From: an uncultured delta proteobacterium
GTDB taxonomy: Bacteria > Desulfobacterota > Desulfuromonadia > Geobacterales > DSM-12255
Direction: 5' to 3'
Length of the DNA stretch: 64,000 bases
Assembly (NCBI GenBank): GCA_963787125.1
Contig: CAWBBV010000006.1
Coordinates: 192,001-256,000 of the forward strand
Shown here: piece after piece, positions 8,126 through 32,330 of the stretch
Position numbering within the stretch: position 1 is the first letter of the stretch
Layout of the letters: each line of letters opens with the position of its first letter
Translations under genes and position numbers: made by a program
The notes under the pieces: generated by a model
What the model saw: the letters and a program-made list of their open reading frames with translations, nothing else
Database searches by the model: none
What the model was told of the DNA's origin: nothing

Positions 8126-9947
8126 CGTTGTGTCAAACTTCTTGACATGTCTTTTTGCTTTTCAGTTCTAATTTCAATGCATTACCAATCAAAGTCTTGC
8201 CTCCCCCCGTGATTCTGGTTAAGAATGCCAGTTATGGAGGGCTAGCTCATGTCGTACCTATCCAAAACTGCCCGGTTTGTTGTCTGGATTTGCTCCAAGT
8301 TTACAAAGACCGAGATTGAACAGATCGTCGTCGGGTTGTCAGATGTCCTCGAAAATCGTAATCCTGAAGTTAAGCCAAAGGACGATTTCAAAGAGAAACA
8401 TCCGAACTACAGAAACTTTATTGTCGATCCCAAGCCGCCACTGACTGAGCCCCCAAAGTTTAAAAAAAAGACCTCGATCAAAAAGACTACCGGCAACTCC
8501 TGATTGAGTACGAAACACTTCACGGAAAGTCTCTTGCTCCGGTCAAGCTCCGGGCGGGTTCATCACCGGTTCCAGTGCATGTCACCTGTCCCTGCTGCGG
8601 AGCGCCAAATACTTATCTCTACTTCAACGACGGAAAGAAGCGCTCTCAAGTTCTCTGCAAGGTTTGCTCTCAACTCTTCCAACTCCAACAGCGCTTCAGA
8701 ACCAACAGAAAGTCAAAGCTCTTCTGTCCCCATTGCGGGCTGGCTCTCTTCAGGTGGAAGTCGCAAAAGGAAGTGACCATCCACAAGTGCCCAAATGATA
8801 ACTGTCCTCACCGTATCCAGGCGCTTGCCAAGCTCAATAAAGCCGAGAAAGAGCTGATGAAAAAGAAAAGTTCTCAGTTCAAAATCAACTACCAGTACCG
8901 CGAATATCACTACAAACCGGAAGAGTTGGAACTCTCTTCTCCGGACAAACCGCCGGTCGAACTGGCGAGAATCCATAACAGCGAAAACGTGCTTGGCCTG
9001 ATTCTGACTTTCTATGTTTCATTCGCCGTTCCGGCCAGAAAAACTGCTCAAATCCTGCGCGAAGTCTTCTGTATCAAGGTTTCTCATCAGACAGTTCTCA
9101 ATTATGCCGCTGGCGCCGCCTGGCACTGCCACCGATTCAATCTCAAGCATAAAGGCCATATCGATAATATCTCTGCAGGTGATGAGACCTACATCAAGAT
9201 CCTGGGCAAGCACCATTATGTCTTCTTTTTTATCTCGGCAAAGAACCTGAAAATCTCCGCCTATCACGTGGCCGATAACAGGGGCACTCAGCCTGCCATT
9301 ATCGCTATGAATGAAGCCATCAGGACTGCTTCTGCCGATCAGCAAATAACCCTTGTCAGCGACGGAAACCCTTCTTATCCAGCTGGCATTCATTTCATCA
9401 ATGCCCAGACTGATGATTCCCAGACGATTCAGCACAAAAAGGTTATTGGCCTCCAAAACCTTGATGCCGAGTCCGAAGAGTACAGATCCTTCAAGCAGCT
9501 CGTTGAGCGGCTCAACAGAACCTTCAAGTATCATGTAAGGCCAGCAGCAGGATTCAACAGCACAAACGGTGCGGTATCTTTAACTACGCTGTTTGTGACC
9601 CACTACAACTTCCTCAGGCCTCACATGTCGCTAAAATATCTACCACCGGTGCCTTTGCAGGAGTTGAAGGCACTGCCGACCATTCAGGCTAGATGGACCA
9701 AGATCCTCTCGCTAGCTGCCTGACTTCCCGTCTTCAAAGATCAATTTACTGATTGTTGTTTTAATCTGACCAACTATCTCACGTGCCTGGTCACAGAGTG
9801 GCTTGCCCAAAATTCAAGCCAGTAACCACAAAGTAGTGAAGTCACAGTCTGGACAGACTCGGAAAAGATGCAGATGAAGGGCATCGTTTACTTTCGAGTA
9901 CTTTCCATTTCAATATCCCGGCTTTTCATGAAACTTTTGACACTATC
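8126..9947 (+). mobile_element. IS6-like DDE insertion sequence, copy 1 (1822 bp)
   Basis: Ends CGTTGTGTCAAA / TTTGACACTATC form imperfect IRs; 8-bp direct repeat CCTTTAGT at 8118-8125 and 9948-9955. Confidence 0.9.
8249..9723 (+). CDS. Transposase (orfA 8249-8503 joined by -1 frameshift to zinc-finger/DDE orfB)
   Basis: GDETYIK, SDGNPSY, VERLNRTFK catalytic motifs; CxxC pairs; A AAA AAG at 8464-8470. Confidence 0.85.
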
Positions 9948-9955
9948 CCTTTAGT

Positions 9956-11777
9956 CGTTGTGTCAAACTTCTTGACATGTCTTTTTGCTTTTCAGTTCTA
10001 ATTTCAATGCATTACCAATCAAAGTCTTGCCTCCCCCCGTGATTCTGGTTAAGAATGCCAGTTATGGAGGGCTAGCTCATGTCGTACCTATCCAAAACTG
10101 CCCGGTTTGTTGTCTGGATTTGCTCCAAGTTTACAAAGACCGAGATTGAACAGATCGTCGTCGGGTTGTCAGATGTCCTCGAAAATCGTAATCCTGAAGT
10201 TAAGCCAAAGGACGATTTCAAAGAGAAACATCCGAACTACAGAAACTTTATTGTCGATCCCAAGCCGCCACTGACTGAGCCCCCAAAGTTTAAAAAAAAG
10301 ACCTCGATCAAAAAGACTACCGGCAACTCCTGATTGAGTACGAAACACTTCACGGAAAGTCTCTTGCTCCGGTCAAGCTCCGGGCGGGTTCATCACCGGT
10401 TCCAGTGCATGTCACCTGTCCCTGCTGCGGAGCGCCAAATACTTATCTCTACTTCAACGACGGAAAGAAGCGCTCTCAAGTTCTCTGCAAGGTTTGCTCT
10501 CAACTCTTCCAACTCCAACAGCGCTTCAGAACCAACAGAAAGTCAAAGCTCTTCTGTCCCCATTGCGGGCTGGCTCTCTTCAGGTGGAAGTCGCAAAAGG
10601 AAGTGACCATCCACAAGTGCCCAAATGATAACTGTCCTCACCGTATCCAGGCGCTTGCCAAGCTCAATAAAGCCGAGAAAGAGCTGATGAAAAAGAAAAG
10701 TTCTCAGTTCAAAATCAACTACCAGTACCGCGAATATCACTACAAACCGGAAGAGTTGGAACTCTCTTCTCCGGACAAACCGCCGGTCGAACTGGCGAGA
10801 ATCCATAACAGCGAAAACGTGCTTGGCCTGATTCTGACTTTCTATGTTTCATTCGCCGTTCCGGCCAGAAAAACTGCTCAAATCCTGCGCGAAGTCTTCT
10901 GTATCAAGGTTTCTCATCAGACAGTTCTCAATTATGCCGCTGGCGCCGCCTGGCACTGCCACCGATTCAATCTCAAGCATAAAGGCCATATCGATAATAT
11001 CTCTGCAGGTGATGAGACCTACATCAAGATCCTGGGCAAGCACCATTATGTCTTCTTTTTTATCTCGGCAAAGAACCTGAAAATCTCCGCCTATCACGTG
11101 GCCGATAACAGGGGCACTCAGCCTGCCATTATCGCTATGAATGAAGCCATCAGGACTGCTTCTGCCGATCAGCAAATAACCCTTGTCAGCGACGGAAACC
11201 CTTCTTATCCAGCTGGCATTCATTTCATCAATGCCCAGACTGATGATTCCCAGACGATTCAGCACAAAAAGGTTATTGGCCTCCAAAACCTTGATGCCGA
11301 GTCCGAAGAGTACAGATCCTTCAAGCAGCTCGTTGAGCGGCTCAACAGAACCTTCAAGTATCATGTAAGGCCAGCAGCAGGATTCAACAGCACAAACGGT
11401 GCGGTATCTTTAACTACGCTGTTTGTGACCCACTACAACTTCCTCAGGCCTCACATGTCGCTAAAATATCTACCACCGGTGCCTTTGCAGGAGTTGAAGG
11501 CACTGCCGACCATTCAGGCTAGATGGACCAAGATCCTCTCGCTAGCTGCCTGACTTCCCGTCTTCAAAGATCAATTTACTGATTGTTGTTTTAATCTGAC
11601 CAACTATCTCACGTGCCTGGTCACAGAGTGGCTTGCCCAAAATTCAAGCCAGTAACCACAAAGTAGTGAAGTCACAGTCTGGACAGACTCGGAAAAGATG
11701 CAGATGAAGGGCATCGTTTACTTTCGAGTACTTTCCATTTCAATATCCCGGCTTTTCATGAAACTTTTGACACTATC
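9956..11777 (+). mobile_element. IS6-like insertion sequence, copy 2 (tandem)
   Basis: Repeats copy 1 at a 1830-bp offset; followed by a third CCTTTAGT at 11778-11785. Confidence 0.9.
10079..11553 (+). CDS. Transposase, copy 2 (frameshift fusion)
   Basis: Same translated ORFs as copy 1. Confidence 0.85.
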
Positions 11778-14497: not shown

Positions 14498-14548
14498 TGG
14501 TGCGAGGAATGGACCAGAACCATCACAAGGTTGCCCCCGCCAGCCCCT
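14498..14548 (-). repeat. Degenerate duplicate of the tRNA-Leu 3' half (att site)
   Basis: Aligns to 32244-32295 with 4 mismatches and 1 gap; adjacent decayed terminator-like hairpin at ~14460-14492. Confidence 0.85.
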
Positions 14549-15223: not shown

Positions 15224-15502
15224 ATGTCCATCAGTCTCGCAGAAGACATCCGCTCGGTTACCGATCTGAAACGGCATACACGGGAAATTCTTGATCATAT
15301 TCACCGGTCAGGTCGGCCTACGGTGCTTACAGTCAATGGCCGGGCCGATGCGGTCATCATCGACGCCAAAGTCTACGAAAAGCAGCTCAAAGCAATGAAC
15401 CTCGCCCGCCTGTTGTCAGTAGCAGAGGAACAAGTTGCGAGCGGCCAGACTCGTCCGGCCCGCGCCTTTCTGACAGAGTTCAAGAATGCGCGTAACATAT
15501 AA
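15224..15502 (+). CDS. Phd/YefM family antitoxin
   Basis: SVTDLKRH...PTVLTVNGRADAV; overlaps the toxin start. Confidence 0.85.
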   Translation: MSISLAEDIRSVTDLKRHTREILDHIHRSGRPTVLTVNGRADAVIIDAKVYEKQLKAMNLARLLSVAEEQVASGQTRPARAFLTEFKNARNI

Positions 15503-15800
15503 CGTCGAAATCACCGCGGCTGCGGAGCGAGATGTTGAGGAGATCTGGATTTACATCGCCGACGACAGCCCGGAAAACGCCACTGCCTTTATACTGCGCC
15601 TTGAGGAGCAGATCGACACGCTTGAGCAGCTTCCCGAGCGCTGCCCGCTGATTCCGGAAAACGAACAGCTCGGTACATCCTATCGCCATCTGCTTCATGG
15701 AGCCTACCGCACCATCTTCCGTATAAACGGCAAGACCGTCTATATCCTGCGCATCATCCACGGCACCCGTCTGCTCGATTCATCCTGCTTCGAAAACTAA
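15486..15800 (+). CDS. RelE/ParE family toxin
   Basis: AAERDVEEIWIYIA...YRTIFRI...ILRIIHG. Confidence 0.85.
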   Translation: MRVTYNVEITAAAERDVEEIWIYIADDSPENATAFILRLEEQIDTLEQLPERCPLIPENEQLGTSYRHLLHGAYRTIFRINGKTVYILRIIHGTRLLDSSCFEN

Positions 15801-15839
15801 GAGCTAAAAATCTCTTCAACCAGCCCTTATCAACTGGGC

Positions 15840-16070
15840 CAGATTCCACCCCCCGCACCCGGTTCACCAGCAGTTCAACACCGCGATTGATATGGGCATG
15901 GAAATAGTCTTCCAGTTCTTCAGGATCAATTTCCTTCTGATGACACCACTGCAGGAACAGCGACGTCAACACCGGTTCATGCTCGCCAAACAGGGTGGAG
16001 ACATGACAGCTTCAACTTGGCAACTTGGAACCCCGTGTCCCCTCGGAACTCCGGCCCCACTGTTGCCTTC
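15840..16070 (-). pseudogene. DndE-like remnant
   Basis: Frame reads STLFGEHEPVLTSLFLQWCHQKEIDPEELEDYFHAHINRGVELLVNRV, resembling the DndE C-terminus; 5' part broken, with tandem CAACTTGG at 16013-16028. Confidence 0.6.
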
Positions 16071-16137
16071 TTGCCACTTGACATTTACCGTAGCCTGATG
16101 AATAGTTTATCAAATTTAAAACCTTTTGAGGTGTGTC

Positions 16138-16356
16138 ATGAGCCCAGCAAAATCGGCATGTGCCAAGGAACTCTTTCACGAGATCGAAACCACGCCGGAG
16201 GAGTATCTGCCGGCTCTTCTGGAAATTGTACGCGGATTCCGCCACGGCATTTTTTTGAAACCTGCGGACGAAAGTTTTCGCCAGGGTATACAGGAAGCGT
16301 TGCAAGGGAATACCTTACCGATATCTGAATTATGGAAGGGCATCGATGCCCGCTGA
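16138..16356 (+). CDS. Putative antitoxin
   Basis: Small acidic ORF ending LPISELWKGIDAR, overlapping the toxin. Confidence 0.7.
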   Translation: MSPAKSACAKELFHEIETTPEEYLPALLEIVRGFRHGIFLKPADESFRQGIQEALQGNTLPISELWKGIDAR

Positions 16357-16690
16357 TTCGGTCTGCATCTCGTTTACCTTCGAATTCAAGCGCAACCTGC
16401 GTGCGCTTGCCAAGAAATACCGCTCCATCCGCACCGACATTCAGCCCCTCATAGACCAACTTAATACCGGCATGCTACCCGGTGATCAAGTCCCTGGCAT
16501 CAGCCTGACTATCTTCAAAGTACGCCTTCAAAACAGTGACATTCAAAAAGGGAAGCGTTCCGGTTACCGTTGCATCTACTATCTCAAAACCCGAAACGAC
16601 ATTATTCTGATTACCGTCTACTCCAAGGCTGAGCAATCAGACGTAACTGCGGCAAGAGTACACACTATCCTCCAAGAAATGGGAAAGTAG
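16346..16690 (+). CDS. RelE/HigB-like toxin
   Basis: KVRLQNSDIQKGKRSGYRCIYY...ITVYSK. Confidence 0.85.
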   Translation: MPADSVCISFTFEFKRNLRALAKKYRSIRTDIQPLIDQLNTGMLPGDQVPGISLTIFKVRLQNSDIQKGKRSGYRCIYYLKTRNDIILITVYSKAEQSDVTAARVHTILQEMGK

Positions 16691-18131: not shown

Positions 18132-19113
18132 CTACAGCCGCCACTCTTTCCGATGGTCGGCCAGATACTCGCGAGCCGGCCATTGATACCGGTCTACAGG
18201 CGGAATGATACCACGGCCAGAGAGAGTCTGGAGGAAGCCGGGGACGTTGGGATCGGCGGCGATCTGGCGGGAGGTGATGACGGCGTAGGAGTCCGACACC
18301 CCCATCATCCCCTTGTCAAAGGCCCAGTGACAGAGCTTGCACAGGGCCATGCCGTTGCGGATGTCGTCGTTCTGGCTCCTGCTCCAGGGGACGATATGGG
18401 CGGCATCCACCACGGTGTGCTGTTCCGGCGTGATGATCCGCACCCCGCAGAGGGCGCAGCGGTGGTCATAGGCCTTCACCACAATGCGGCGAAAGCCCTG
18501 ATCACGGGCTGCGGGGCGGTAGTTGTCCGCCTCGATGATTTCCTGCACCAGCGGCAGATGGGATTTTTCTTCCAGCAGTCTGACTGTAGGCGAATGCCTC
18601 GCGATTGATGATCGACTGCTCCCGCAAAAGAGCCGCGGCTTCGGGCGAGAAGCAGGACTGCAGCAGTGCTTCCCGCAACGCCTCTCTCCCCTCCCCGCTC
18701 TGCATGACCTGAAACAGCTCCTCGTCCAGCTTTGCGCCCAGGGCGTACTTGCGCAGGTAGGTGACGGAGGAGGTGTTGTTGATGATTGCCGGGGTAATGG
18801 TTGTGCCCGGTTGCGGCACCAGTTCCCAGAACGGCTCCCGGTCGAGACGGGAGAAGGGAAAGGCGATGCTGCTGGTCTGACCGAGGGGGATGATCCGCCG
18901 CCAGTAGAGGTTGAACAGCTCGTTCAGCTCCACCAGATCGCCGGTCACGGCGATGAACGGCGAGGTGATGACGCCGCGATGCACCAGATCCAGCACCGCC
19001 AGCAGCAGGAGCGGTTTGTGCGGGGCCTTGCGCTTGGTGGCGTCGGTCCAGGTCGCGCCGGGGGCGCGGTTGAGGGAGGCGAAGTGTTTGATGGATGTGG
19101 TGAGGTTGGTCAT
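18132..19113 (-). CDS. SBD-HNH modification-dependent restriction endonuclease, split by one extra base at ~18582
   Basis: APHKPLLLL and FPFSRL N-terminal motifs; CALCG...DAAHI...NGMALCKLCHWAFD HNH domain in the next frame. Confidence 0.75.
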
Positions 19114-19187
19114 GGTTTCTTTCAGATTATTGAGAAACTAAAGAGAGTTGAGACACGACATCTAGAGGCGATCAAAATGTCAAAAAG

Positions 19188-20273
19188 TCAACCCTTACCC
19201 CGCAGGGTCCCACCCTTGATCTGTCCGCCTGCCGGGACTTGCAGTTGCTGAATATCCTGCTCCAGTTCCTTAAGACTTACTTCATGCTGAATCTGCCGCT
19301 GCACTTCACGATATTTGTCGAACTCAAGCGCCGACTTTTCCAGCGCCATCTGGTGGCTGATCTTTCCGGCATGGGTGAGCAGATCGCGGCCATTAAGCTG
19401 AATTATCGCGTCCAGCCGGGCAATCCAGTCATTCATGTACATGGGAGTTCGCTGCAGCACCATGGTTTCTGCAAAGGCCAGGTACTGTTCAACCAGCAGT
19501 CCGAGCAGCTTCATTTCATCCTCTGTCAGATAATTCTTGGCAATGCTCACATCGCTTTTGCGCACCGCCAGTTCACCCTTTTTGTCACAGGACTGCATCC
19601 CCATGAGCGGCAGCGCAGCATCGGCCCGGCGGAATACCAGCTCCGCCGCTGTCTGCTGGCTGATGGCCCAGAGCAGTTTGTTCTGCACCACCTTGAAGAA
19701 CTCGATCGTCTTTTCGTCCCTGGGATCGTAGTCGATACTGGTTGCGTAGATATCCTTGATTTTCTGGTAGAAGAAGCGCTCCGAAAGTCGGATTTCACGG
19801 ATGCGTTCCTGCAACTCGCTGAAATAATTCATGGAGCTGCCGCTCTTGAAGCGCTCGTCGTTCAGGGCAAAGCCCTTGACGATATACTCCTTGAGTCGCT
19901 GGGTGGCCCAGATGCGGAACCGAACGCCCTGTTGGGATTTAACCCGGTATCCGACCGAGATGACCAGATCCAGGTTGTAAAAGTTGACCTCTTTCGACTG
20001 AGTTTTCCCTTCAATTGCGCCGTGTCGGGTGGTTGTCCGGAATTTCCGGATAACCACCTGCTCGTCCAGTTCACTCTCGTCGAAGATATTCCGGATATGC
20101 TCCGATATGGTTTTTTTGCTTTTGCCGAATAACTGCGCCATATGGTCCTGCGACAACCAGACCGTCTCGTCCTCCAGTCGGACATTGATCCGGATTGTCC
20201 CGTCCGGCGCCTGATAAATGAGTATTTCCGAGTTATTCACGCTTATGGGAGAATTGGTCAGGTCTTTGCTCAT
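19188..20273 (-). CDS. RhuM family protein
   Basis: ETVWLSQ, YNLDLVISVGYRV, FRIWAT, IREIRLSERFFYQK, IAKNYL. Confidence 0.9.
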   Translation of the reverse strand: MSKDLTNSPISVNNSEILIYQAPDGTIRINVRLEDETVWLSQDHMAQLFGKSKKTISEHIRNIFDESELDEQVVIRKFRTTTRHGAIEGKTQSKEVNFYNLDLVISVGYRVKSQQGVRFRIWATQRLKEYIVKGFALNDERFKSGSSMNYFSELQERIREIRLSERFFYQKIKDIYATSIDYDPRDEKTIEFFKVVQNKLLWAISQQTAAELVFRRADAALPLMGMQSCDKKGELAVRKSDVSIAKNYLTEDEMKLLGLLVEQYLAFAETMVLQRTPMYMNDWIARLDAIIQLNGRDLLTHAGKISHQMALEKSALEFDKYREVQRQIQHEVSLKELEQDIQQLQVPAGGQIKGGTLRGKG

Positions 20274-21212: not shown

Positions 21213-21278
21213 TAATCTGACAACATTTTTGGAATTAAATACATTAAGGCGGCCGATCGGCCGCCTTCCGTAATTACA

Positions 21279-22271
21279 CTATGCTCTTCTACAAAGAGCA
21301 GTGGGGGCAGCCGTGGAAATAAACGCCGCGTGTCCAGCTTCAAATGGAGCGACTGAAAGAATATCGTTTTCAAGCGAGATAATGATAGTTCCAGCGCAGC
21401 ATGCATTTACGGTTTTACCGGCAGAAAATGTATTAACAAGATGATCTCCTGCGTTTTCAGGCAACATGCTAGCGCAATGCTCTGAAAGCTGTGTGCAGAC
21501 GATTCTTGCCCCTGGCACAACCTCCTTAATGGCTTTTATAATATTTGGTTGTGGTGTCGAATATCTGCCTCTTCCGATTGAGAACACAACGGTATTGGGT
21601 TGAATACAATTACATACCTGTTTCGTGAATTCTATTAAGTCAGCCCCCTCAACTTTCCCCCCATGGTGTGGAAATACAATTACTGGTGCTGTGGCATCAA
21701 CTTGGCATTCAGTAAGATATTCCATCATGTTGAGAAAGCCGGTATTATCTATATCCCCAGTGAATACTAGAATCGGCCTATCGTTTTGCAGGACTCTAAT
21801 TACTGCACTTACGGAATTAGACGTTATCGAACGATTACTCCGGTCCTTTGAACCAGGACCTTTCCCTGCCAAGTAAATGCTAGGTGCAAGTATTTCAACC
21901 TTGAAGGCTCCAAAGTTAAAGGTGTTTGAATCGCTGACTGTAAGAGCTACACCGAAGTCGACGTCCCCACCATTATGAGCCTTGCTCAATGTAAAGAGTA
22001 GGTCGTCCCAAATGATAGAAGCTTTACGAGAGTCCGTATTGAGCCGGACTTTTCCAATTGTGAATTCCTCAGAACTAAGCAGCCCTATTAAACCTGCAAT
22101 ATGGTCTTGATCTGCATGCGAGATTAGAAGTACATCAACGTTCGAAATCCCTTCTGCTTTAAGGAACTCCATTAGAGAAGCTCCTGGTCCGGCATCAATT
22201 ACGAGTGTATGATTATCTTCTCTGACAATCGCACAATTGCCGTGCCCTACGTCCAAAATGAATGCTGGCAT
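21279..22271 (-). CDS. ComEC/Rec2-type metallo-beta-lactamase fold hydrolase (putative nuclease)
   Basis: LDVGHG, SHADQDH, FTGD, PHHG motifs; no membrane domain. Confidence 0.85.
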   Translation of the reverse strand: MPAFILDVGHGNCAIVREDNHTLVIDAGPGASLMEFLKAEGISNVDVLLISHADQDHIAGLIGLLSSEEFTIGKVRLNTDSRKASIIWDDLLFTLSKAHNGGDVDFGVALTVSDSNTFNFGAFKVEILAPSIYLAGKGPGSKDRSNRSITSNSVSAVIRVLQNDRPILVFTGDIDNTGFLNMMEYLTECQVDATAPVIVFPHHGGKVEGADLIEFTKQVCNCIQPNTVVFSIGRGRYSTPQPNIIKAIKEVVPGARIVCTQLSEHCASMLPENAGDHLVNTFSAGKTVNACCAGTIIISLENDILSVAPFEAGHAAFISTAAPTALCRRA

Positions 22272-22279
22272 GACTAGAA

Positions 22280-22945
22280 CTACCTCCCGCGGAACTCAAA
22301 CTCGTCAAAGTACAGTTCTTCGTCAGACTCAGCTCCGGTGTTTACCTTTGCAAAAAACCTCGTTCCAGGTTTAATCTCGGCTCTAAACTCGAATGGGATT
22401 ATATCCATTGGGAATCTTATTATCTCTGACGGGTTCCATCCGGGAATATTCGCAAAGACAATAGGGTTTTTCGTATCTAAATCCACCTCTTCAACTCGAA
22501 GAAGAGTTTTCCAAGGCCGTCTTTTCGGCAAAAAATGATTACTAAATTCTTGAATACAAATTTCGAATCCTTTAGCTATAACATCAGGATCAGCTTCATC
22601 ATGTGAGAGAAGAACGGGTATCTTCCTACGAAAGCGTCTCATATCGTCGATTAACGCTTTACTCCAACTTGTAACAAGCACAGCAGGAAATCTAACATCA
22701 TAAGATATTGCAACTGCTTCAGCACCGGTGCAATAGGCATAATTTCTGGTGCTTAGATGATGATCACACACAATTGCGTCAGCTTCTCCGCGCGCAATGC
22801 CGACCAACTCGTCTGCACTCTTGAAAGGTCCAATAAGAGGTTTAGCATTAAATTGTGCATCTCTGAGTTCAGCAGAAAGGGTTTCTCGGGCATCGTCAGA
22901 ATCATCGACTACAGCAATAGATATTATGCTCACATTACGCTCCAA
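22280..22945 (-). CDS. Receiver-domain protein with uncharacterised C-terminal domain
   Basis: VVDD acidic pocket, CDHHL phospho-acceptor Asp, VLVT; alternative start GTG 22933. Confidence 0.75.
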   Translation of the reverse strand: MERNVSIISIAVVDDSDDARETLSAELRDAQFNAKPLIGPFKSADELVGIARGEADAIVCDHHLSTRNYAYCTGAEAVAISYDVRFPAVLVTSWSKALIDDMRRFRRKIPVLLSHDEADPDVIAKGFEICIQEFSNHFLPKRRPWKTLLRVEEVDLDTKNPIVFANIPGWNPSEIIRFPMDIIPFEFRAEIKPGTRFFAKVNTGAESDEELYFDEFEFRGR

Positions 22946-24992
22946 GTATCGGCAGTTCTACCGAAATTTCCGCACCACCCAAAGATCCATTTGACAGTGC
23001 GCTGATGGATCCACCCAAATCTTTTACAGTGTCACGGACTATTGTAAGGCCAAGGCCTGTGCCATTAGGATAGGTAGTTTCACCAGGGAGCCAAATATCC
23101 TTAAGGCTTATTCCAGATATGCCTGGACCATTGTCAGCGATGACAATAGTCACTATCCCATCTGCGACTTGCGTCTCAACAGAAATCAAACGATCCTGAG
23201 GAGGAGCCGTCTCGAAAGCCTTCAAGGAGTTTGTTATGATATTTGAGATAATTGACTCTATTGCTGCCTCGCTAGCCCGGAGATACGGATTCCCCGCATC
23301 ATATTTGAACCTTACTTCGGTTTTTCTCTCTTTTATCGTTAAAGCAAACATATCAACAACATCACTGATAACCTTATGAATATCGACCCGAGAAACCCGT
23401 CGTTTTTCATGATCTATAAAATTCAAGGTCAAGCTACCAAATGCTTTAAGTATTTCCGCTTGACGTTGAACAATTCCAATAGGACCTTCAAAGAACTCTT
23501 CAAATTTATCTGATACCGCTGTTTTCGCACGATTCTCAATGAGCTTTGCATTTTTTTCAATAAGCCTAAGTGGATGTTTTGACTCATGAGCAAAAATACC
23601 TGCCGTAATCCCTGCAGTACTAAGAGTCCTGTAGAGTTGAACTTCCTTTTTGAGGATTACAGTCTCCTTAGTTCGTGCTCGATCATAATCTTTGAATTTC
23701 TCTTCTACGTTTTTCTTTTCTTCAGATGGCAACAATTTAATAGCTTCATCAATAGTTTGTTTAGCCTTGTCAACTTCACCTTTTGCTTGTTGTCTTTGCT
23801 GTTGTCTTTTAGATTCTCTTTCTTCTTTTCTCCGTCGATGCATCCAATCAAGTGCATCGGTAGCAAAGCGCTTCAATTCATGAAACAATTCACTCTCAAC
23901 AAGGCCCGAACGATCCGTTTTCTGAAGAAGGTCTTCATTTGTACCAATTACAGCCATTCGGCCAATTGACGTATTAGTTCCAGGGCGTAACTCAGGATCT
24001 CGAACGCGACTAAGATTCATGTCAAGCCAGTCGTTCCCTGGGTTTCCATATGGCGAGACACGAAGACCATGTATATATAAGTGGACTCCACCAAATTCCT
24101 TAAGCCATGCTTTGACCTCGCCGACGGTTGTTGGACGAAAGGAAAACGTATCGCTACTGAGAATATACGCCCAAATGTCAAATGTAGCCGGAGGGCAATT
24201 GTACTTACTGACCTTAGGACTTATTTCATCGTGATCAGCGGCAAAGAGCTTGTTTCCTTTCCAATCCGTAACCGTTGCTTTAACCTGCCCATTTGTGTCA
24301 ACTTCTGCAAAAAGATGAAATTCAGCATCATCAAAATATCTTCGCTGAACAAGTTTTTCTAGATCTTCGAATTCAGGAGCTTTCAATATGGGCTGAAATC
24401 CAGAAGGATTGTCTCCAAAAGGATCCGCAAGCAACAACAGACCCCTAGCCAGCCTTTTCACGTCATTGCGAGTTATCCTATAACGAAGGTTAGCGATTCT
24501 TATCTCGGTTCCCCTTCCGACACTTGAAGCACGAACAGTTTCTTCTATCTCCAGGTCAACTTCTTCAACAACATCGAACTGGTCAAATTTTCTCCAATCT
24601 ATGAACAGTGAGTATTGTTTTTTCTCCTCTTCTAACGGCCTAGTAAGCAGGGTGGTTTCAGTACCTAGTCTTAATGCAGCGAGCCTTCCAAGCCCTTTAT
24701 TCCCGGCAGGAATTCGTCCTAAGCGTGTTACCTTCCTAACATTTTTTGCTGACTTTCCAAGTAGCAACCAACTGTTTTCGATATCCTCTTTTTCCATTCC
24801 TTCGCCATCATCACTTACAGAAATCGTTCCTCCGAGTACTTGTGTATTCCTTATCTGGATCGTGCAAGTATTAGCATCTGCGTCATATGCATTCTTTACC
24901 AATTCAAGAATTCCTTGGTCGGGGTTTGGGTTCAACTCCTCACCAAGACGTCTAAGAATATCGGTAGAAAATTTTAAGTGCGCTTTACTCAT
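22935..24992 (-). CDS. MORC/GHKL ATPase fused to histidine kinase
   Basis: ELVKNAYDA, DDGEGM, GNKGLGR, GTEI; coiled coil; FAHESKHPL H-box, ITNSLKA, DNGPGI, GTGLGL. Confidence 0.88.
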   Translation of the reverse strand: MSKAHLKFSTDILRRLGEELNPNPDQGILELVKNAYDADANTCTIQIRNTQVLGGTISVSDDGEGMEKEDIENSWLLLGKSAKNVRKVTRLGRIPAGNKGLGRLAALRLGTETTLLTRPLEEEKKQYSLFIDWRKFDQFDVVEEVDLEIEETVRASSVGRGTEIRIANLRYRITRNDVKRLARGLLLLADPFGDNPSGFQPILKAPEFEDLEKLVQRRYFDDAEFHLFAEVDTNGQVKATVTDWKGNKLFAADHDEISPKVSKYNCPPATFDIWAYILSSDTFSFRPTTVGEVKAWLKEFGGVHLYIHGLRVSPYGNPGNDWLDMNLSRVRDPELRPGTNTSIGRMAVIGTNEDLLQKTDRSGLVESELFHELKRFATDALDWMHRRRKEERESKRQQQRQQAKGEVDKAKQTIDEAIKLLPSEEKKNVEEKFKDYDRARTKETVILKKEVQLYRTLSTAGITAGIFAHESKHPLRLIEKNAKLIENRAKTAVSDKFEEFFEGPIGIVQRQAEILKAFGSLTLNFIDHEKRRVSRVDIHKVISDVVDMFALTIKERKTEVRFKYDAGNPYLRASEAAIESIISNIITNSLKAFETAPPQDRLISVETQVADGIVTIVIADNGPGISGISLKDIWLPGETTYPNGTGLGLTIVRDTVKDLGGSISALSNGSLGGAEISVELPILGA

Positions 24993-26278
24993 ACCTTTCT
25001 CCACGGGATCTCTGCGATTGAAGATATAGTTAAATGACGGCATCTTATACGCTCATTTAACCAATCATTTGCCCACTTTGTGCTTAGCATATTCAACAGC
25101 GCTTGGCAGGTTTCAAGTGATTTATCCTTAGGCTGTAATACTATTAAATGATTATCGACTGCTACTGAAGAGTCCACGTTAATGATAGTCGATACTGCTC
25201 TAAATAAATCATCCGGCCTTGATGTCCTTCTAATAACTACAAATGGCGAAGGAATTATCTTACGAGAATACCTTCGACTGTGACTAACATGGCTTACAAT
25301 TGACCATTTCGGTAGATCTTTAGAGATAAGATATGGCACCGTCGGACCATCGTGCGAATCTCTATAATCAACCACTGTACCTATCGACAAATCAAACATA
25401 CTAGAAATTGTGCTGCAATTGTTTGTTACAGGGTAGCTCCAGTTGAGAGTACTATCATTGTTATTAACAATTAAGGCATCGATTAGGAAAACATTCACAT
25501 CAATACTAGGTTCAAATTGTCCCAATGCTGTTATTTTATTAACTAGCATTTTTTTGCTGACAATACGTCTCCATCTTTCATAGCGTGCACCTGATCTAAG
25601 TACTTCTGGAAGTATTGCTATAATTCGCGTTCCCACATTGGATTTAACAACATAATCGTGAAAAAAAACGGCTGCGTAGTTAGTTTTTCCTGACGACCAT
25701 ACACATCCTTTTGGTGTGTCAACAAGATTGTAAGGTGGATTCATGACAACATAGTTAAAATCCATACCGATGTCAGCAGTAGTTACTCCACAGCCCTGTT
25801 TTATGTTTTTGAAATAGGTACCTATTCCTTTAAATCGTTGAGGTAGTGCCGCTCCTTTGTGTAACGCAGTAAGTGCAAGCCTAGCTTTTGTTGCCATTAC
25901 GAATTCATGGTGCAAATCACTTCCGTAAAAAATATTGCCCCATGAAGACATCGTATTCTCGAAATCTTCAGTAATAGTTATGTTTTTTGCCACGTCTACC
26001 AGCAAATCACCAGCACCGCATGCAGGATCAATGATTTTATGTTGGCAACCAAGTAATTTTGAGTCAATCAGCTGAGTGGTTTCATTCGCTAAGAAACCTC
26101 CAGAAAAAAAAGCACCAGACTCCCTTCTTGCTTCGTATGACACAAGTTGCTGAAGCTTCCGCGCTGGCTGACCATTAAGGGCAGAAATTACCGAAACATC
26201 ATCCTTCGGAATAGATCCAAAAACGATCCCTTCGCACAATTTTTCTAGATGTGAAACGTATCCAGCGTATGCTTTCAT
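24989..26278 (-). CDS. N6-adenine DNA methyltransferase
   Basis: GAFFS, DPACGAGD (motif I), NPPY (motif IV); stop overlaps the next ATG. Confidence 0.88.
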   Translation of the reverse strand: MKAYAGYVSHLEKLCEGIVFGSIPKDDVSVISALNGQPARKLQQLVSYEARRESGAFFSGGFLANETTQLIDSKLLGCQHKIIDPACGAGDLLVDVAKNITITEDFENTMSSWGNIFYGSDLHHEFVMATKARLALTALHKGAALPQRFKGIGTYFKNIKQGCGVTTADIGMDFNYVVMNPPYNLVDTPKGCVWSSGKTNYAAVFFHDYVVKSNVGTRIIAILPEVLRSGARYERWRRIVSKKMLVNKITALGQFEPSIDVNVFLIDALIVNNNDSTLNWSYPVTNNCSTISSMFDLSIGTVVDYRDSHDGPTVPYLISKDLPKWSIVSHVSHSRRYSRKIIPSPFVVIRRTSRPDDLFRAVSTIINVDSSVAVDNHLIVLQPKDKSLETCQALLNMLSTKWANDWLNERIRCRHLTISSIAEIPWRKV

Positions 26279-26384: not shown

Positions 26385-26560
26385 CTACCCACCCCTTCTA
26401 TTATCCTCAAACATCTCCACCGGCATCTGATGCCTGAGCCGCCAGACCATCTTGATCGGCCGGTCGCTCTCGTAACTGACCATATCCACCGGCCCCAGAT
26501 AGGTAAACGGCACCTTGACATTGTTCCGCTTTTTTTGGTCGCGGGCAAACCGTTCAATAC
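26385..26560 (-). pseudogene. C-terminal fragment of a DUF3427-like protein
   Basis: PFTYLGPVDMVSYESDRPIKMVWRL; no N-terminus. Confidence 0.55.
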
Positions 26561-26855
26561 CCGTTTTTACTTGCTCTTTCCTCGAGGTCACGCCATTCGG
26601 CAATTTTACTTTCCAAATATCTGAGCTGACTTGTACGGTCTCTGCTGAAGAAGTGGCTTAACTCACTTGAAAGATCAATACGTATAAAAATTCTATTAGG
26701 TTTGTCCTGGTCCTGGTCGGTAAGGCCAAGTTTTATCAGGTTCTTCGAATCAATCGATTTTCCCAAATTTAATTCAAACACCAAATAGGCAGGCTGATTG
26801 TAATATATACCTATCCAACATCTATTTCCTTCTGTGTAGTAACCGATATACTCTT

Positions 26856-28105
26856 TGAACTTCCCCCGAGATTGTGGACAGTCCGAAAAGCTGCTACAAA
26901 AGCAGACGGAGGACAGTCATGGTATCGAAGAGAAAGTCGTTCACCCGCGAGTTCAAGATCGAAACGATCAAACTGGTTACCGATGGAGGTGCCGATGTAA
27001 ACCAGATAGCGAGCGATATGGGGATTCACCCCAACACGCTTTACAACTGGATCAGGCAGTTATCGGTTAAACCTGAAGAAGCGTTTCCCGGCAAAGGGCA
27101 TATGACCTCTGACGCGGAGATAATCCGTCAACTTAAGCGTGAAAATGAGCGTTTAAAGATGGAGCGTGAAATCTTAAAAAAAGCAATGGCCATCTTTTCA
27201 AAAGACCCGACTTGACCTTTAGCTTCATCCGTGAGAATCAGACTGAGTTTCGGATCTCCATCATGTGTAGCGTTTTCGACGTTTCACGGAGCGGATATTA
27301 CGCCTGGTTAAAACAGCCAGAAGGCAAAAAAAGTCAAGAAGATCAAGCGCTATCAGAGGTGATCAAAGAGATTCACCAAGAGAGCAATCGCACCTACGGA
27401 AGTCCCAGGGTGCACCGGGAACTACAGAGGCGCGGCAAGCATTACGGTCGTAACAAGATTGCCCGCCTGATGAGAAAAGATGGCCTTAGAGCGAAGACGA
27501 AGCGCAAGTTCAAGGCAACGACCAACTCTAAGCATAAGTTGCCCGTGGCGGCCAACCTTCTCAATCGGGAGTTCACGCCAAAGCGGCCTAACCAGGCATG
27601 GGCCGCAGACATCACTTACATCTGGACCGGCGAGGGGTGGCTCTACCTGGCAATAGTTATGGACTTGTTTTCACGTGCCATCGTTGGGTGGTCCATGTCG
27701 GAGCGAATGACCCGGAATATTGTCATCGATGCTTTCATTCTCGCAGTTAAGCGACGAAACCCGCCGCGTGGACTGATTCATCATTCCGATAGAGGGTCGC
27801 AGTATGCAAGCATTGAATTCCAGGCCCTGTTAGTGAAAAATGGCACAACTTGCAGCATGAGTCGCAAAGGTAATTGTTGGGACAACGCACCGGCAGAAAG
27901 CTTCTTTGGGACACTTAAGAGAGAGCTTGTATTTCACTGCCAGTATTCAACCCGAGCCGATGCACGCCAGAGCATCTTCAGTTACATAGAACGTTTCTAT
28001 AACCGTAAAAGAATTCATTCTTCGCTGGGGTATCGGACTCCATACGAGGCGGATCAACTCAAATTTGCAGCTTAACACCCTGTCCACTGAACCGGGGGAA
28101 CTTCA
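26856..28105 (+). mobile_element. IS3 family insertion sequence (1250 bp)
   Basis: TG...CA ends with IRs TGAACTTCCCCCG / CGGGGGAACTTCA; 3-bp target duplication CTT. Confidence 0.92.
26919..28075 (+). CDS. IS3 transposase OrfA (26919-27215) / OrfB (27212-28075), -1 frameshift
   Basis: HTH Orf[27 protein letters not shown]7G run at ~27176-27183. Confidence 0.92.
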
Positions 28106-28793: not shown

Positions 28794-29687
28794 TTAACGC
28801 CCACTCACCCCTACCCCCGCCACAACAATCGGCATCTCAAACATGAACCCCAGATACGGCAACTCCCGCGCGGCCTTCTCGTAACTCATCATCCCTGAAT
28901 AAACCGGCGACCGCTCACTTACAGAGTTCTCCCGCGCTCGCTTCTGCCCCAACTCGCACAGGAGCGCCGCAAAGGCCGTCATCGGACAGAGAAGCAGGCC
29001 GAGCCTGGCAGCCCTGTATTTACGGGCCAGCATGAACTTTACATAGTCCTGGTAGTAGGAGCGGGCATTGCCGAACTCCACCTCTACCCAGATGCCGTTC
29101 TTCTCGAAATCGCACTTGAGCCCCAGTTCCGGCACAACCCGCTGCTCCCGCTGCCAGCCTCGATCAACTAATCCTGCGCTGATCAAACCGTTGTAGTCCG
29201 CCTGATTGAAAGCAGCATCATAATCCACCGCGGCCAGCGACTCCCTGATCTGGTGAATCTCTGTGATGCCCTCCATTTCCTGCCTCTCCAGGTGATGCAG
29301 CTGTAGAGCGCCGATCTGCAGGGCTGGAGCGGTACTCTTCAAAATCGGCTTGAACAGGAAGGTGAACGGCGCAACCTCGACAATCTCCAGCAGGTTCCCT
29401 GCTACCGATCCGCCGAATACCGCAGCCAGCCAGAGCCGCAGCCGCTCCTGTGACTTGTTTTCATAGCGGAACTGGAGATGGCCCGGTTTGTTGTTCAAGC
29501 GGCGTATCTCGGCCTTCACCGGTTCTTCAGCACCGCAGAGTATTGTCACCGCGACCTTGCCGCCCTTCTCTATCGCCCGCAGCCGCTCCGTCTGCGCCTC
29601 AAGCGGAATCGTCACGCCGTACCTGAAGGTGGACAGACCGACCGGGTGGAGGAACTTCAAGTTTTCAAACAAAGAAGGCTGCATCAT
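28794..29687 (-). CDS. BglII/BstYI-like restriction endonuclease with extra N-terminal domain
   Basis: CDFEKNGIWVEVEFGN...QDYVKF motif. Confidence 0.7.
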   Translation of the reverse strand: MMQPSLFENLKFLHPVGLSTFRYGVTIPLEAQTERLRAIEKGGKVAVTILCGAEEPVKAEIRRLNNKPGHLQFRYENKSQERLRLWLAAVFGGSVAGNLLEIVEVAPFTFLFKPILKSTAPALQIGALQLHHLERQEMEGITEIHQIRESLAAVDYDAAFNQADYNGLISAGLVDRGWQREQRVVPELGLKCDFEKNGIWVEVEFGNARSYYQDYVKFMLARKYRAARLGLLLCPMTAFAALLCELGQKRARENSVSERSPVYSGMMSYEKAARELPYLGFMFEMPIVVAGVGVSGR

Positions 29688-30499
29688 GTGTGCAAGAACA
29701 CCTCTTCCCGGTGCATCTGCATAAACTCGGCATCCGGTGGAAACTTCTCCGGCATCACGATCTGCTTCCCTTCGTAATCAAGGAAGTTACGCGCAAGCGA
29801 ATCGTTCGGCAAATACTCTCGCAGATAAGGGCTGAGTACAAGACGATACTCTTCGTCCAGAGTGATTAGCCCCTTGTCAAATGCAGCGTCCTGGGTCTGC
29901 GCAAGGCAAAGGCCATTCTGCGGATTAAGACGCTGCTCCGGGTATTTGCCCCACGGGAGGATGTGGCTTGCCACTAATAGCGCCGGAACCGGATTTCCGG
30001 TAATGCAGCAGCAGCTGTTGTAGGAAGCGAGCACGCTTTGGCGAAAGAACTGCTGGCCGAGGCGTGTCTTTACCGAGACGATCTTTTCTGTCGGTCCGGA
30101 AGGTTCTGTGATAGGGAGCTTGAATATGGATTGGCGGCGTGACGTGCTCTTTCCTGGCACAGCAGCCGGCTCCGCCACTTCGGTCTGCCCGATCAACAGT
30201 TGCAGCTGTTCTTCGCTGGTTACGCCATACTCTTCCCAATTGGCGGTGAACTCATTCCACGCTTCCCGATCAGCGCGACTTGCCCCCTGCAAACCCTTGA
30301 TGCCACGGGCCTGATGGTACGGGTCGAGCGAGGCAAGGTTGCACAGCTTCATGGAAAGGCTGCTGGGCGTCCTGCCGAGCTTTTGCGCGACTTCGATGAT
30401 CAGGGGGTTGCCATGGCGCAGCTGACCAAAGGGAAGCTTGCAATACAGGTTCATTGCCAGCATCAACTCATCATGTGACCACGCTTTACCTTGTGCCAT
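29684..30499 (-). CDS. HNH endonuclease
   Basis: RLGQQFFR, CCITG, ASHILPW, NGLCL...AFDKG. Confidence 0.88.
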   Translation of the reverse strand: MAQGKAWSHDELMLAMNLYCKLPFGQLRHGNPLIIEVAQKLGRTPSSLSMKLCNLASLDPYHQARGIKGLQGASRADREAWNEFTANWEEYGVTSEEQLQLLIGQTEVAEPAAVPGKSTSRRQSIFKLPITEPSGPTEKIVSVKTRLGQQFFRQSVLASYNSCCCITGNPVPALLVASHILPWGKYPEQRLNPQNGLCLAQTQDAAFDKGLITLDEEYRLVLSPYLREYLPNDSLARNFLDYEGKQIVMPEKFPPDAEFMQMHREEVFLHT

Positions 30500-30678: not shown

Positions 30679-31347
30679 TTACTGCTCTAACAATTTGCGG
30701 GCTAAGCTATGCAGCTCTGAGTTTGCTAATGCGACCACCTTTTTCTTAACTGAACGGGAATAATACTCCTGTTCAGTCTTGGACAAAGGGAGGCCTTCGA
30801 GTTTTTTCTTAAACAGATCCTTCTGTTTTGGCGAAAAGAGCTGAGAAAGGGCATACGCTAGAGAAAACTCCTCATACTTCTCCTTGCTCCGCCTGGTTTT
30901 ATCAACGTTTTGTTCGAAGTACAGTTCAAACAGTTTCCTGAGACGCTTAGAGTCGAGTTCCTCATTATCCCAGGCTAGTGGTTGATTATGAGCTAGAGAG
31001 TTGCGCCACTCCTTTGCCTGAAACTTGTCTTCATTGGAGAGTTTCTTTTTAAGCTTGGTCAACCACGGAAATGTCAGGTGGTAGGACGAGTACACGGATG
31101 AAGACAGGAGTAACAGCTTGTGAAAGTTATTCTTATCCTGGTCAGATAAAAGTCGCTCAACCAGTTCGGGGGTAAACTGGTAGTTTTCAGCGGCATTTAC
31201 CAGCAGCACCGGAAATCCTTCCCAAAGACGGGTGTCATGGCTCTTAACCACATCTGCAAGAGTTTTATTAACATCCAGTTCCTCGCTTGGCTCAAGCATA
31301 GGAAAACCGAGCTTCGATAAGCTGTGCATCAGGTCATTGTTACTCAT
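30679..31347 (-). CDS. Hypothetical protein coupled to the nucleotidyltransferase
   Basis: 222-aa ORF overlapping the upstream stop; C-terminal SKTEQEYYSRSVKKK. Confidence 0.7.
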   Translation of the reverse strand: MSNNDLMHSLSKLGFPMLEPSEELDVNKTLADVVKSHDTRLWEGFPVLLVNAAENYQFTPELVERLLSDQDKNNFHKLLLLSSSVYSSYHLTFPWLTKLKKKLSNEDKFQAKEWRNSLAHNQPLAWDNEELDSKRLRKLFELYFEQNVDKTRRSKEKYEEFSLAYALSQLFSPKQKDLFKKKLEGLPLSKTEQEYYSRSVKKKVVALANSELHSLARKLLEQ

Positions 31348-31942
31348 AGAGACCCTTCTCCTTTAGCAATGCAACGAAATGCTCAATGTTTGGTTTCAGC
31401 CGACTTTCTGCCACGTCATAGCTGACCATCTCATTGAAGTGCTCAATAAGCCCTGTTATGGATAAATCGGCTATATGGGCTTCAGCCAGAGCAAGGCAAT
31501 CCGCAAAATCGACTCTTGTCCCACGCATCAGCTTACTGGAAATCAGATCATAGTCGTTTAGGATGCCGATATAAAGGTGTGAGTACTCTTTTAAGAGAGT
31601 GTGCCTCCCCTCTTCCAATGGAGATGTCAGCAGCCCGGTTGTATGAATGGAGTTCCCACGAAAGATATCAAACTGAAATTGTTCCCCTGGTCGCTGCCAG
31701 CCCGCATGAGTTACCGGTTCATAATCCAACGCCTTGAGATTGTATATTAAATACTTATACTCACTGATACTCGGAACCATGAAATCTACATCTTTCGTCG
31801 ACGGTTTGACTCCAAGCAGGGTCATGGCTGTTCCACCACAAGCGATCAGGTGAACTTTGCGTCTGAGGACGCGGTTCCACTCCTCCATAATCTCAAGCAG
31901 CTGGTTTCTGTTTAGCCTGTAGTCCATTTTGTAGTTATCCAT
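31340..31942 (-). CDS. Nucleotidyltransferase (DUF6036/AbiEii-like)
   Basis: CGGTAM...TKDVDF signature, SSKLMR. Confidence 0.75.
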   Translation of the reverse strand: MDNYKMDYRLNRNQLLEIMEEWNRVLRRKVHLIACGGTAMTLLGVKPSTKDVDFMVPSISEYKYLIYNLKALDYEPVTHAGWQRPGEQFQFDIFRGNSIHTTGLLTSPLEEGRHTLLKEYSHLYIGILNDYDLISSKLMRGTRVDFADCLALAEAHIADLSITGLIEHFNEMVSYDVAESRLKPNIEHFVALLKEKGLYE

Positions 31943-32243: not shown

Positions 32244-32330
32244 TGGTGCGGTGGAATGGACTCGAACCATCACAGGGTTGCCCCCGCCAGCCCCTCAAGC
32301 TGGTGCGTCTACCAATTCCGCCACCACCGC
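32244..32330 (-). tRNA. tRNA-Leu(GAG)
   Basis: 87-nt cloverleaf GCGGTGG...CCACCGCACCA; anticodon arm CCAGC-TTGAGGG-GCTGG; long variable arm; GTTCGA. Confidence 0.97.

Follow-up and report, generated by a model that had tools for sequence, protein, structure and literature searches.

A GHL-type ATPase fused to a histidine kinase, paired with a receiver and encoded beside DNA methylases, defines a class of prokaryotic modules that is already known. Here we describe a four-gene cassette of this class whose new element is that the receiver is predicted to control a nuclease directly. It lies in a 64,000-nt stretch of DNA from an uncultured delta proteobacterium (contig CAWBBV010000006.1, positions 192,001 to 256,000); this whole stretch is called the window, and gene coordinates are window positions. 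The cassette codes for a methylase, a GHL ATPase-histidine kinase, a receiver, and a hydrolase of the metallo-β-lactamase (MBL) fold.

The closest described systems come from papers of which the accessible parts state the following. GHL-plus-kinase fusions among restriction-modification (R-M) genes were noted in 2008, in a work that treats R.HgiDII and R.EcoUTORF4938P as GHL-type R-M enzymes (PMC2441816), and the paraMORC and MORC GHL ATPases of R-M systems were described in the same year (PMC2292703). Soluble dual-ATPase kinases with divergent receivers followed in 2021 as the families HEF_HK and Response_reg_2 (PF19191 and PF19192; PMC8011034). Ambrosia (AbrR-AbrA-AbrB-AbrC-AbrD), from P. 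aeruginosa, is a validated anti-phage system that is induced on infection, requires the Asp of its receiver (D60A), and shows no toxicity for the host; methylation by AbrA did not shield the phage (bioRxiv 10.1101/2025.09.30.679545).

The cassette and its conservation

The cassette consists of four open reading frames (ORFs) on the minus strand, all open and each as long as its homologues:

24989..26278, minus strand: methylase gene, 429 aa, gamma-class amino DNA methyltransferase (Pfam N6_Mtase)
22935..24992, minus strand: GHL-kinase gene, 685 aa (HATPase_c_3 and HATPase_c)
22280..22945, minus strand: receiver gene, 221 aa, starting at TTG 22945 or GTG 22933
22283..22528, minus strand: C-terminal domain of the receiver (residues 140-221), five strands and one helix in the model
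21279..22271, minus strand: MBL hydrolase gene, 330 aa, soluble ComEC-type MBL fold
21246..21267, no strand: GC-rich hairpin of 9 bp, lying between the stop of the MBL gene and a convergent DUF6530 gene

The genes are tightly coupled. Methylase and kinase genes share an ATGA overlap (24989-24992, with GGAG upstream), and their spacing in relatives lies between -13 and +10 in 27/27 co-oriented pairs. An ATG at 25043 was rejected as the kinase start, as homologues begin at the position of 24992. The kinase stop at 22935 gives an 11-nt overlap with the receiver gene if the latter starts at the TTG and a 1-nt gap if it starts at the GTG, which is preceded by GGAG; the corresponding spacing is -17 to +18 in 35/35 relatives. 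The receiver and MBL genes are separated by 8 bp. The hairpin is probably the terminator of the cassette, an argument from its position and not from counts, because a scan finds 4 such sites in the data when 4.2 are expected from shuffles. A promoter scan returned fewer sites than in shuffled sequences. The cassette is single-copy in the host genome, and its GC content is 42.0% against 50.8% for the genome, with 14 of 825 5-kb windows equally low. None of the four proteins has a membrane segment (no 19-residue hydrophobic stretch exceeds 1.42 on the Kyte-Doolittle scale). A Pfam scan of the proteins gives N6_Mtase, HATPase_c_3 with HATPase_c, and Lactamase_B, and no match for the receiver. The initial annotation of this DNA had described four apparently intact, co-oriented, and tightly coupled genes, richer in AT than the host and including a kinase devoid of membrane sensor; ORFs, lengths, junctions, composition, and hydropathy all agree with it.

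Loci were gathered by kinase similarity alone and counted if the kinase scored at least 300 bits, excluding fragments and ordinary kinases and retaining a few near-duplicates. The partner genes are thus an independent readout. Receiver and MBL are present in 64/64 kinase loci having at least 1.8 kb downstream; they are collinear in 63, and in the other (L080) they are inverted jointly, as a pair. Among the 64 loci whose upstream flank reaches 1.5 kb or more, 55 have the usual methylase, which is collinear in 50 of them and inverted or moved in the other 5. Among the nine loci lacking it, L140 has a distant kinase and L073 is cut short. The methylase slot contains a BsuBI/PstI R-M pair, upstream, in L001, a related methylase in L019 and L024, an Eco57I-like methylase in L060, and a C5 methylase in L134, while L022 has an N6/N4 methylase-Mrr fusion downstream. 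Finally, in L077 the genes for kinase, receiver, and MBL are all intact, but there is no methylase within 5 kb on either side. The methylase is usual but exchangeable, being replaced in six loci and its slot empty in one.

All-against-all clustering of ORFs of at least 70 aa from 40 loci reveals no fifth conserved gene, as only the four recur. No XRE family member occurs among 95 small upstream ORFs in 38 loci, two of which have HTH_17/AlpA excisionase-like ORFs, and the stretch upstream of the cassette in the window contains no regulator gene. The initial annotation had made its proposal depend on the co-occurrence of the genes in other genomes, and they do co-occur. According to record titles the cassette spans 11 named phyla, with copies on plasmids (L168, from Burkholderia, is one) and on six viral contigs, and at E 1e-10 or better the receiver family numbers 769 clusters. 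It is absent from the 40 related genomes searched, in which the matches are generic receiver domains (E > 1e-5). In conclusion, the cassette is a real, intact, widespread, and mobile module, borne on an island.

The receiver and its predicted association with the hydrolase

In the model of the receiver (predicted local distance difference test, pLDDT, 94.6), the part that matches receiver domains is residues 6-138 (Z 13.3, root-mean-square deviation [rmsd] 2.6, 122 aligned). Four of the five residues of the canonical active site are present: D14, D15, D61 (148/150 relatives), and T92 (T or S in 150/150). The fifth, the Lys of β5, is missing, since a Lys anywhere in 113-116 is found in 31/150 relatives and never forms a conserved column. 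Hence, the protein is a pseudo-receiver by the definition of PMC12632262, the same source indicating that loss of the Lys need not abolish phosphorylation. The acidic pocket and Asp noted in the initial annotation are therefore there, but the missing Lys had been overlooked. In a Streptomycetaceae branch (L038-L040), a Lys is found at the end of β5 of the receiver and the methylase is divergently transcribed.

Residues 140-221 form five strands with one short helix between strands 3 and 4, in an OB-like order (DSSP of the model, pLDDT > 90). This domain has no match in Pfam, in a PDB sequence search, or in the structure atlas, and four fold searches with the receiver returned lists filled by the receiver part, with no usable match for the C-terminal domain. 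A domain that is unfamiliar and is not a helix-turn-helix (HTH) had been announced from the translation, and a β domain is what the model shows. It is acidic (pI 5.2, family median 5.7), and of the four basic residues conserved in it, three are turned toward the nuclease in the predicted complex. Because it is acidic and its conserved arginines point to the nuclease, the domain looks like a docking module and not like a DNA-binding one.

The hydrolase has the motifs DVGHG, HxDxDH, D173, and HHG, kept in 33/33 relatives; the accessible part of PMC12455585 gives H-x-D-x-D-H as the metal motif of ComEC. Its best fold match is the nuclease domain of ComEC (PDB 9ic4, with Z 26.1, rmsd 2.6, and 249 aligned), followed by the phosphorylcholine esterase Pce (Z 21.8), and the sequence matches rank in the same order (E 8e-20 for ComEC against 2e-10 for Pce). 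The earlier description as a soluble ComEC-like MBL hydrolase thus holds for fold, sequence, and metal site. By analogy with ComEC, nucleic acid is its most likely substrate. A conserved C-terminal Cys/His cluster (C259, C266, C291/292, H314, C327) may bind a further metal.

Co-folding of the hydrolase with the receiver scores 0.75, against 0.00 for the best of three controls; the mark is reached by 116/157 solved complexes and by 2/215 mismatched pairs, a calibration that is rough because our own alignments were used. Contacts are shared between runs to 83% or more, and the partner pLDDT is 87 or higher. All predicted contacts on the receiver side come from the C-terminal domain (residues 139-150, 168-173, and 196-206), and those on the MBL side, D56 among them, cluster around the helix after the metal motif. 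Covariation is seen at the 25 contacts predicted best, with a mean z of 1.70 in 59 pairs and of 1.19 in 23 pairs withheld from the model. In both sets the mean is higher than for any of the 45,359 slid patterns, and with shuffled pairing it does not exceed 0.64. At MBL residue 90 and receiver residue 150, which change 8 and 9 times on a quick kinase tree, an acid-base pair is found in 40/59 pairs, both charges are lost in 16/59, and 3/59 are discordant. Receiver interface residues are also more conserved than the remainder of the domain (0.56 versus 0.41, p 0.007). Single-pair covariation between the other protein pairs is at background level. No receiver-MBL fusion occurs among 7,989 longer candidates, which is weak evidence, and PDB sequence searches found no complex containing a C-terminal domain of this type. 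We know of no solved complex of the receiver-nuclease kind. Model and covariation together suggest that the receiver quite likely binds the MBL nuclease directly.

Proposed function and competing explanations

The kinase is composed of a GHL ATPase with an S5 domain (~1-390), a coiled coil, an H-box with His469, and a catalytic domain (~536-685). The N-terminal part matches the BbrUII/HgiDII restriction enzymes (E 2e-20). In 34 kinase rows, E30, N34, D61, G63, G65, H469, N584, N588, D620, and G644-G648 are invariant, as are the S5 basic residues K358 and R361, and so both ATPase sites and the H-box His are conserved. The MORC S5 motif GhXhhpXXRhl is found in 0/34 rows; cassette kinases have GVHLYxNGLRV instead, which is one residue longer. 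GHL ATP motifs and an S5 basic residue in an R-M context would place them with the paraMORC type. From the initial label of MORC-ATPase/histidine kinase one can thus retain the second complete ATPase, the protein being MORC-like only. Other GHL-kinase architectures occur among L177, L178, L179, L090, L169, and L180, with a C5 methylase, the kinase, and a receiver of 360-370 aa with a long C-terminus that has no family assignment. The L090 kinase carries an N-terminal EcoRII-N DNA-binding domain, a hint that GHL-kinases may read DNA sequence. More distant kinases are accompanied by C5 methylases and by receivers of 360-470 aa that share nothing with the cassette receiver's C-terminal domain; the output end of GHL-kinase systems is therefore modular.

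The methylase has the gamma-type order of motifs (motif X as GxFF, motif I as DPACGAG, motif IV as NPPY), with NPx[YF] kept in 33/33 relatives, and it matches Pfam N6_Mtase (E 2e-6) and, as best PDB hit, M.BseCI (E 3e-9). It is probably an N6-adenine enzyme. It aligns by hhalign with the BsuBI/PstI R-M methylase of L001 (98.4% over 358 columns), C-terminal region included, and this target-recognition region is more conserved than the catalytic part (mean majority 0.56 versus 0.48). A synonymous-shuffle test of 45 cassettes found no single clearly avoided recognition site; palindromes are depleted in general, with CTTAAG at 0.38. In the host genome CTCGAG is at 0.28 of expectation, far below every other 6-bp palindrome, and because the cassette was recently acquired this depletion is not attributable to it.

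The cassette is probably an anti-phage or anti-plasmid defense system, a mobile module in which a phosphorelay would control a nuclease at the protein level. In the mechanism we favor, the GHL-S5 clamp, of the HgiDII/BbrUII restriction-enzyme kind, would sense a DNA state or a phage protein that signals infection and turn on the fused histidine kinase via His469. The kinase would then phosphorylate Asp61 of the receiver, as the conserved residues and the D60A result of Ambrosia suggest. The receiver would not be a transcription factor, its β domain being docked, in the model and with the support of covariation, on the hydrolase beside HxDxDH, and phosphorylation would turn on the MBL enzyme, either by releasing it or by activating it allosterically. 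The methylase would supply a DNA mark read by the sensor, as an exchangeable input that protects or tags. By analogy, Ambrosia speaks for this function, as a set that defends and requires its receiver Asp, and so does the location of the cassette in an island of nuclease and toxin-antitoxin genes at a tRNA. The whole chain, from the sensing of infection by the ATPase-kinase through phosphorylation of Asp61 to the switching on of a pre-docked nuclease, seems to us evenly balanced between true and false. A narrower version is more tentative: the clamp would read DNA methylation, and His-to-Asp transfer to the Lys-less receiver would activate a pre-assembled ComEC-like nuclease within seconds, without transcription and with a swappable methylase. 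The initial annotation had a His-Asp relay licensing the nuclease; the predicted complex and its covariation back the link between receiver and nuclease, while the phosphotransfer step is one that we infer.

Several points weigh against this proposal. The Lys-less receiver may be phosphorylated weakly or not at all. DNA is not the sole possible substrate, because the second-best fold is that of a phosphorylcholine esterase. On the MBL side, interface residues show no higher conservation than the protein average (0.43 versus 0.51). An underpowered tree-based test of the 90/150 pair, with 4 independent pairs on supported branches, counts 3.3 of them in the same direction and 0.0 in the opposite one (p 0.25). 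In a set of 46 rows, single-pair z values of 5 to 7.7 arise for every protein pair and 90/150 is outside the top 8, so that the evidence is the whole covariation pattern and not any one pair. Finally, PADLOC models fit the receiver in 0/36 cases, and none fits the other three proteins at family level.

The best surviving alternative, which is on balance unlikely, is a restriction system in which a phosphorelay takes the place of fusion in linking the nuclease: the methylase would mark host sites, the clamp would fire on unmethylated incoming DNA, and the relay would license cleavage. The resemblance of the GHL domain to restriction enzymes, the BsuBI/PstI-like and well-conserved C-terminal region of the methylase, and the presence of another methylase in 6/8 orthologous loci without the usual one are what one would expect from it. 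However, C5 and other methylase classes are among the replacements while the kinase shows no obvious change, L077 dispenses with a nearby methylase, no site is clearly avoided in the cassettes, and AbrA methylation gave phage no protection. The idea of the initial annotation that methylation marks self is weakened, and is doubtful because of this Ambrosia result and of the swapped or empty slot.

One would give less credit still to a guard, in which the methylase, or a nearby R-M system, is watched by the kinase and a block by a phage inhibitor releases the hydrolase, killing or arresting the cell. An exchangeable slot, the complete BsuBI/PstI pair of L001, and a gene coupling tight enough for a stoichiometric complex would suit it, as would the use of MBL domains as effectors elsewhere in defense (weak matches to LmuA, RTasMBL, and Avs1a). 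This is a distinctly poor prospect, as methylase and kinase covary only in background-level pairs and Ambrosia has no host toxicity. Both alternatives differ in the input alone and are compatible with docking of the receiver on the nuclease.

Control as in Ambrosia would have the phosphorylated receiver bind nucleic acid through its OB-like domain, either inducing the operon or providing the nuclease with a DNA-binding subunit, the role that the OB fold has in ComEC. It finds some echo in the strand order of the domain, in the roughly seven-fold higher activity of the ComEC nuclease domain with a tethered DNA-binding domain, and in the induction of Ambrosia upon infection. Yet the receiver lacks an HTH, its C-terminal domain is acidic with conserved basic residues placed in the predicted protein interface, and no XRE gene lies upstream in the 38 loci, which makes such control improbable. 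Equally improbable is a hydrolase acting on a small phosphodiester (a nucleotide signal or a metabolite), or a selfish or stress-signaling module, for in spite of the Pce match and of a related kinase-receiver pair induced in planta (accessible part of PMC8011034), ComEC is clearly closer in both fold and sequence, and its patchy occurrence, its place in an island, and its link to methylases suit conflict systems.

Island context and comparison with described systems

The cassette is inside a 17.8-kb island bounded by a tRNA gene and a partial copy of it, the former being the probable integration site:

14506..14548, no strand: left island boundary, a 43-bp, 93% copy of the 3′ part of tRNA-Leu
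32244..32330, minus strand: right island boundary, the tRNA-Leu(GAG) gene

The cargo includes HNH, BglII-like, PD-(D/E)XK, RhuM, and toxin-antitoxin genes, several of them broken, in line with the initial annotation. A PD-(D/E)XK_4-like gene (start 28745) is split by an IS3-family element (~26856-28105), with an apparent remainder to 26554, and is followed by a DUF3427 C-terminal remnant (26385-26657); an HNH gene is split as well. At 28794-30499 there is a BglII-family nuclease with a 155-aa N-terminus lacking family matches and no adjoining methylase; coupled to it is an HNH gene for which a PADLOC HNH model gives a match at 1e-93, and the two are possibly a modification-dependent pair. The nearby BglII-like and HNH genes were rejected as cognate restriction enzymes of the cassette, not being conserved beside it. 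Two overlapping ORFs at 18132-20273, with a RhuM/PDC-S05 gene upstream, correspond to the two halves of a model for a phosphorothioate-DNA restriction nuclease and are apparently a single frameshifted gene. A DUF6036 nucleotidyltransferase and a partner without family match (30679-31942), which we take to be AbiE-like, adjoin the tRNA, and the other end of the island (15227-16690) has a Phd-ParE pair, a RelE-like gene, and a truncated cysteine desulfurase. The window also contains two identical DDE transposase ORFs in tandem (8575-9723 and 10405-11553).

The interest of the cassette is bounded by the fact that its class was described before. Receiver and MBL would make a small testable complex (551 residues, with named residues) and a potential source of a phosphorylation-switchable nuclease, and the ComEC nuclease domain would be reused outside DNA uptake. 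The kinase would offer a way to learn which signals are sensed by prokaryotic MORC-like ATPases, a question dating from 2008. Natural variants of experimental use are the three-gene core (L077), the methylase-Mrr fusion (L022), the BsuBI/PstI pair (L001), and the inverted receiver-MBL pair (L080).

Literature searches, with most subscription papers outside reach, found no publication on the four-gene set, which the more than 500 candidate clusters of Ambrosia may nevertheless list. Nor did the literature searched contain a published defense system in which a histidine kinase controls a nuclease bound by its receiver, and the accessible passages of the Tiamat preprint mention neither receivers nor Ambrosia. 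The set had initially been held to be uncharacterized, which stands for these four genes but not for their class, of which Ambrosia is a validated member. The comparison with PADLOC that had been proposed gives no family-level fit, and the set falls outside the definition of Ambrosia.

As with the published papers generally, the comparisons below concern their accessible parts. With the paraMORC/MORC R-M systems the cassette shares a GHL and S5 module with intact ATP motifs beside a methylase, but it lacks the MORC S5 motif and a helicase, and its nuclease is a separate gene reached via the receiver. HEF_HK and Response_reg_2 likewise combine a soluble HATPase_c_3, H-box (HE), and HATPase_c kinase with a divergent receiver and R-M genes. 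However, neither PF19191 nor PF19192 is matched by the cassette at E 0.01, their receiver keeps the Lys, their partners are C5 methylases, Vsr, and HNH, and no MBL partner appears in the Results of PMC8011034. ComEC has the same fold and HxDxDH/HH metal site and a small β-barrel partner (PDB 9IC4, PMC12455585), whereas the cassette enzyme is stand-alone and soluble, with an extra Cys/His-rich C-terminus, and its partner would be a separate receiver protein whose domain seems to bind protein and not DNA.

Ambrosia is similar at the level of domains, with an N6 methylase, an HATPase sensor kinase, a receiver, and a nuclease named in the same order, and the receiver Asp that it requires is conserved in the cassette. 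The cassette is nonetheless not Ambrosia, a separation made on gene and domain features: it has no XRE regulator such as AbrR, a β domain replaces the winged helix-turn-helix of AbrC, and the fourth gene is a ComEC-type MBL in 64/64 loci instead of the HNH nuclease AbrD. Ambrosia is from Gammaproteobacteria, in contrast with the 11 phyla of the cassette; in 400 genomes of one gammaproteobacterial class there are seven matches, two being this cassette and five other architectures, and none of the seven includes an HNH family match. Transcriptional control is proposed for Ambrosia and direct binding is predicted here, which, if true, would be a second wiring of a His-Asp relay into immunity.

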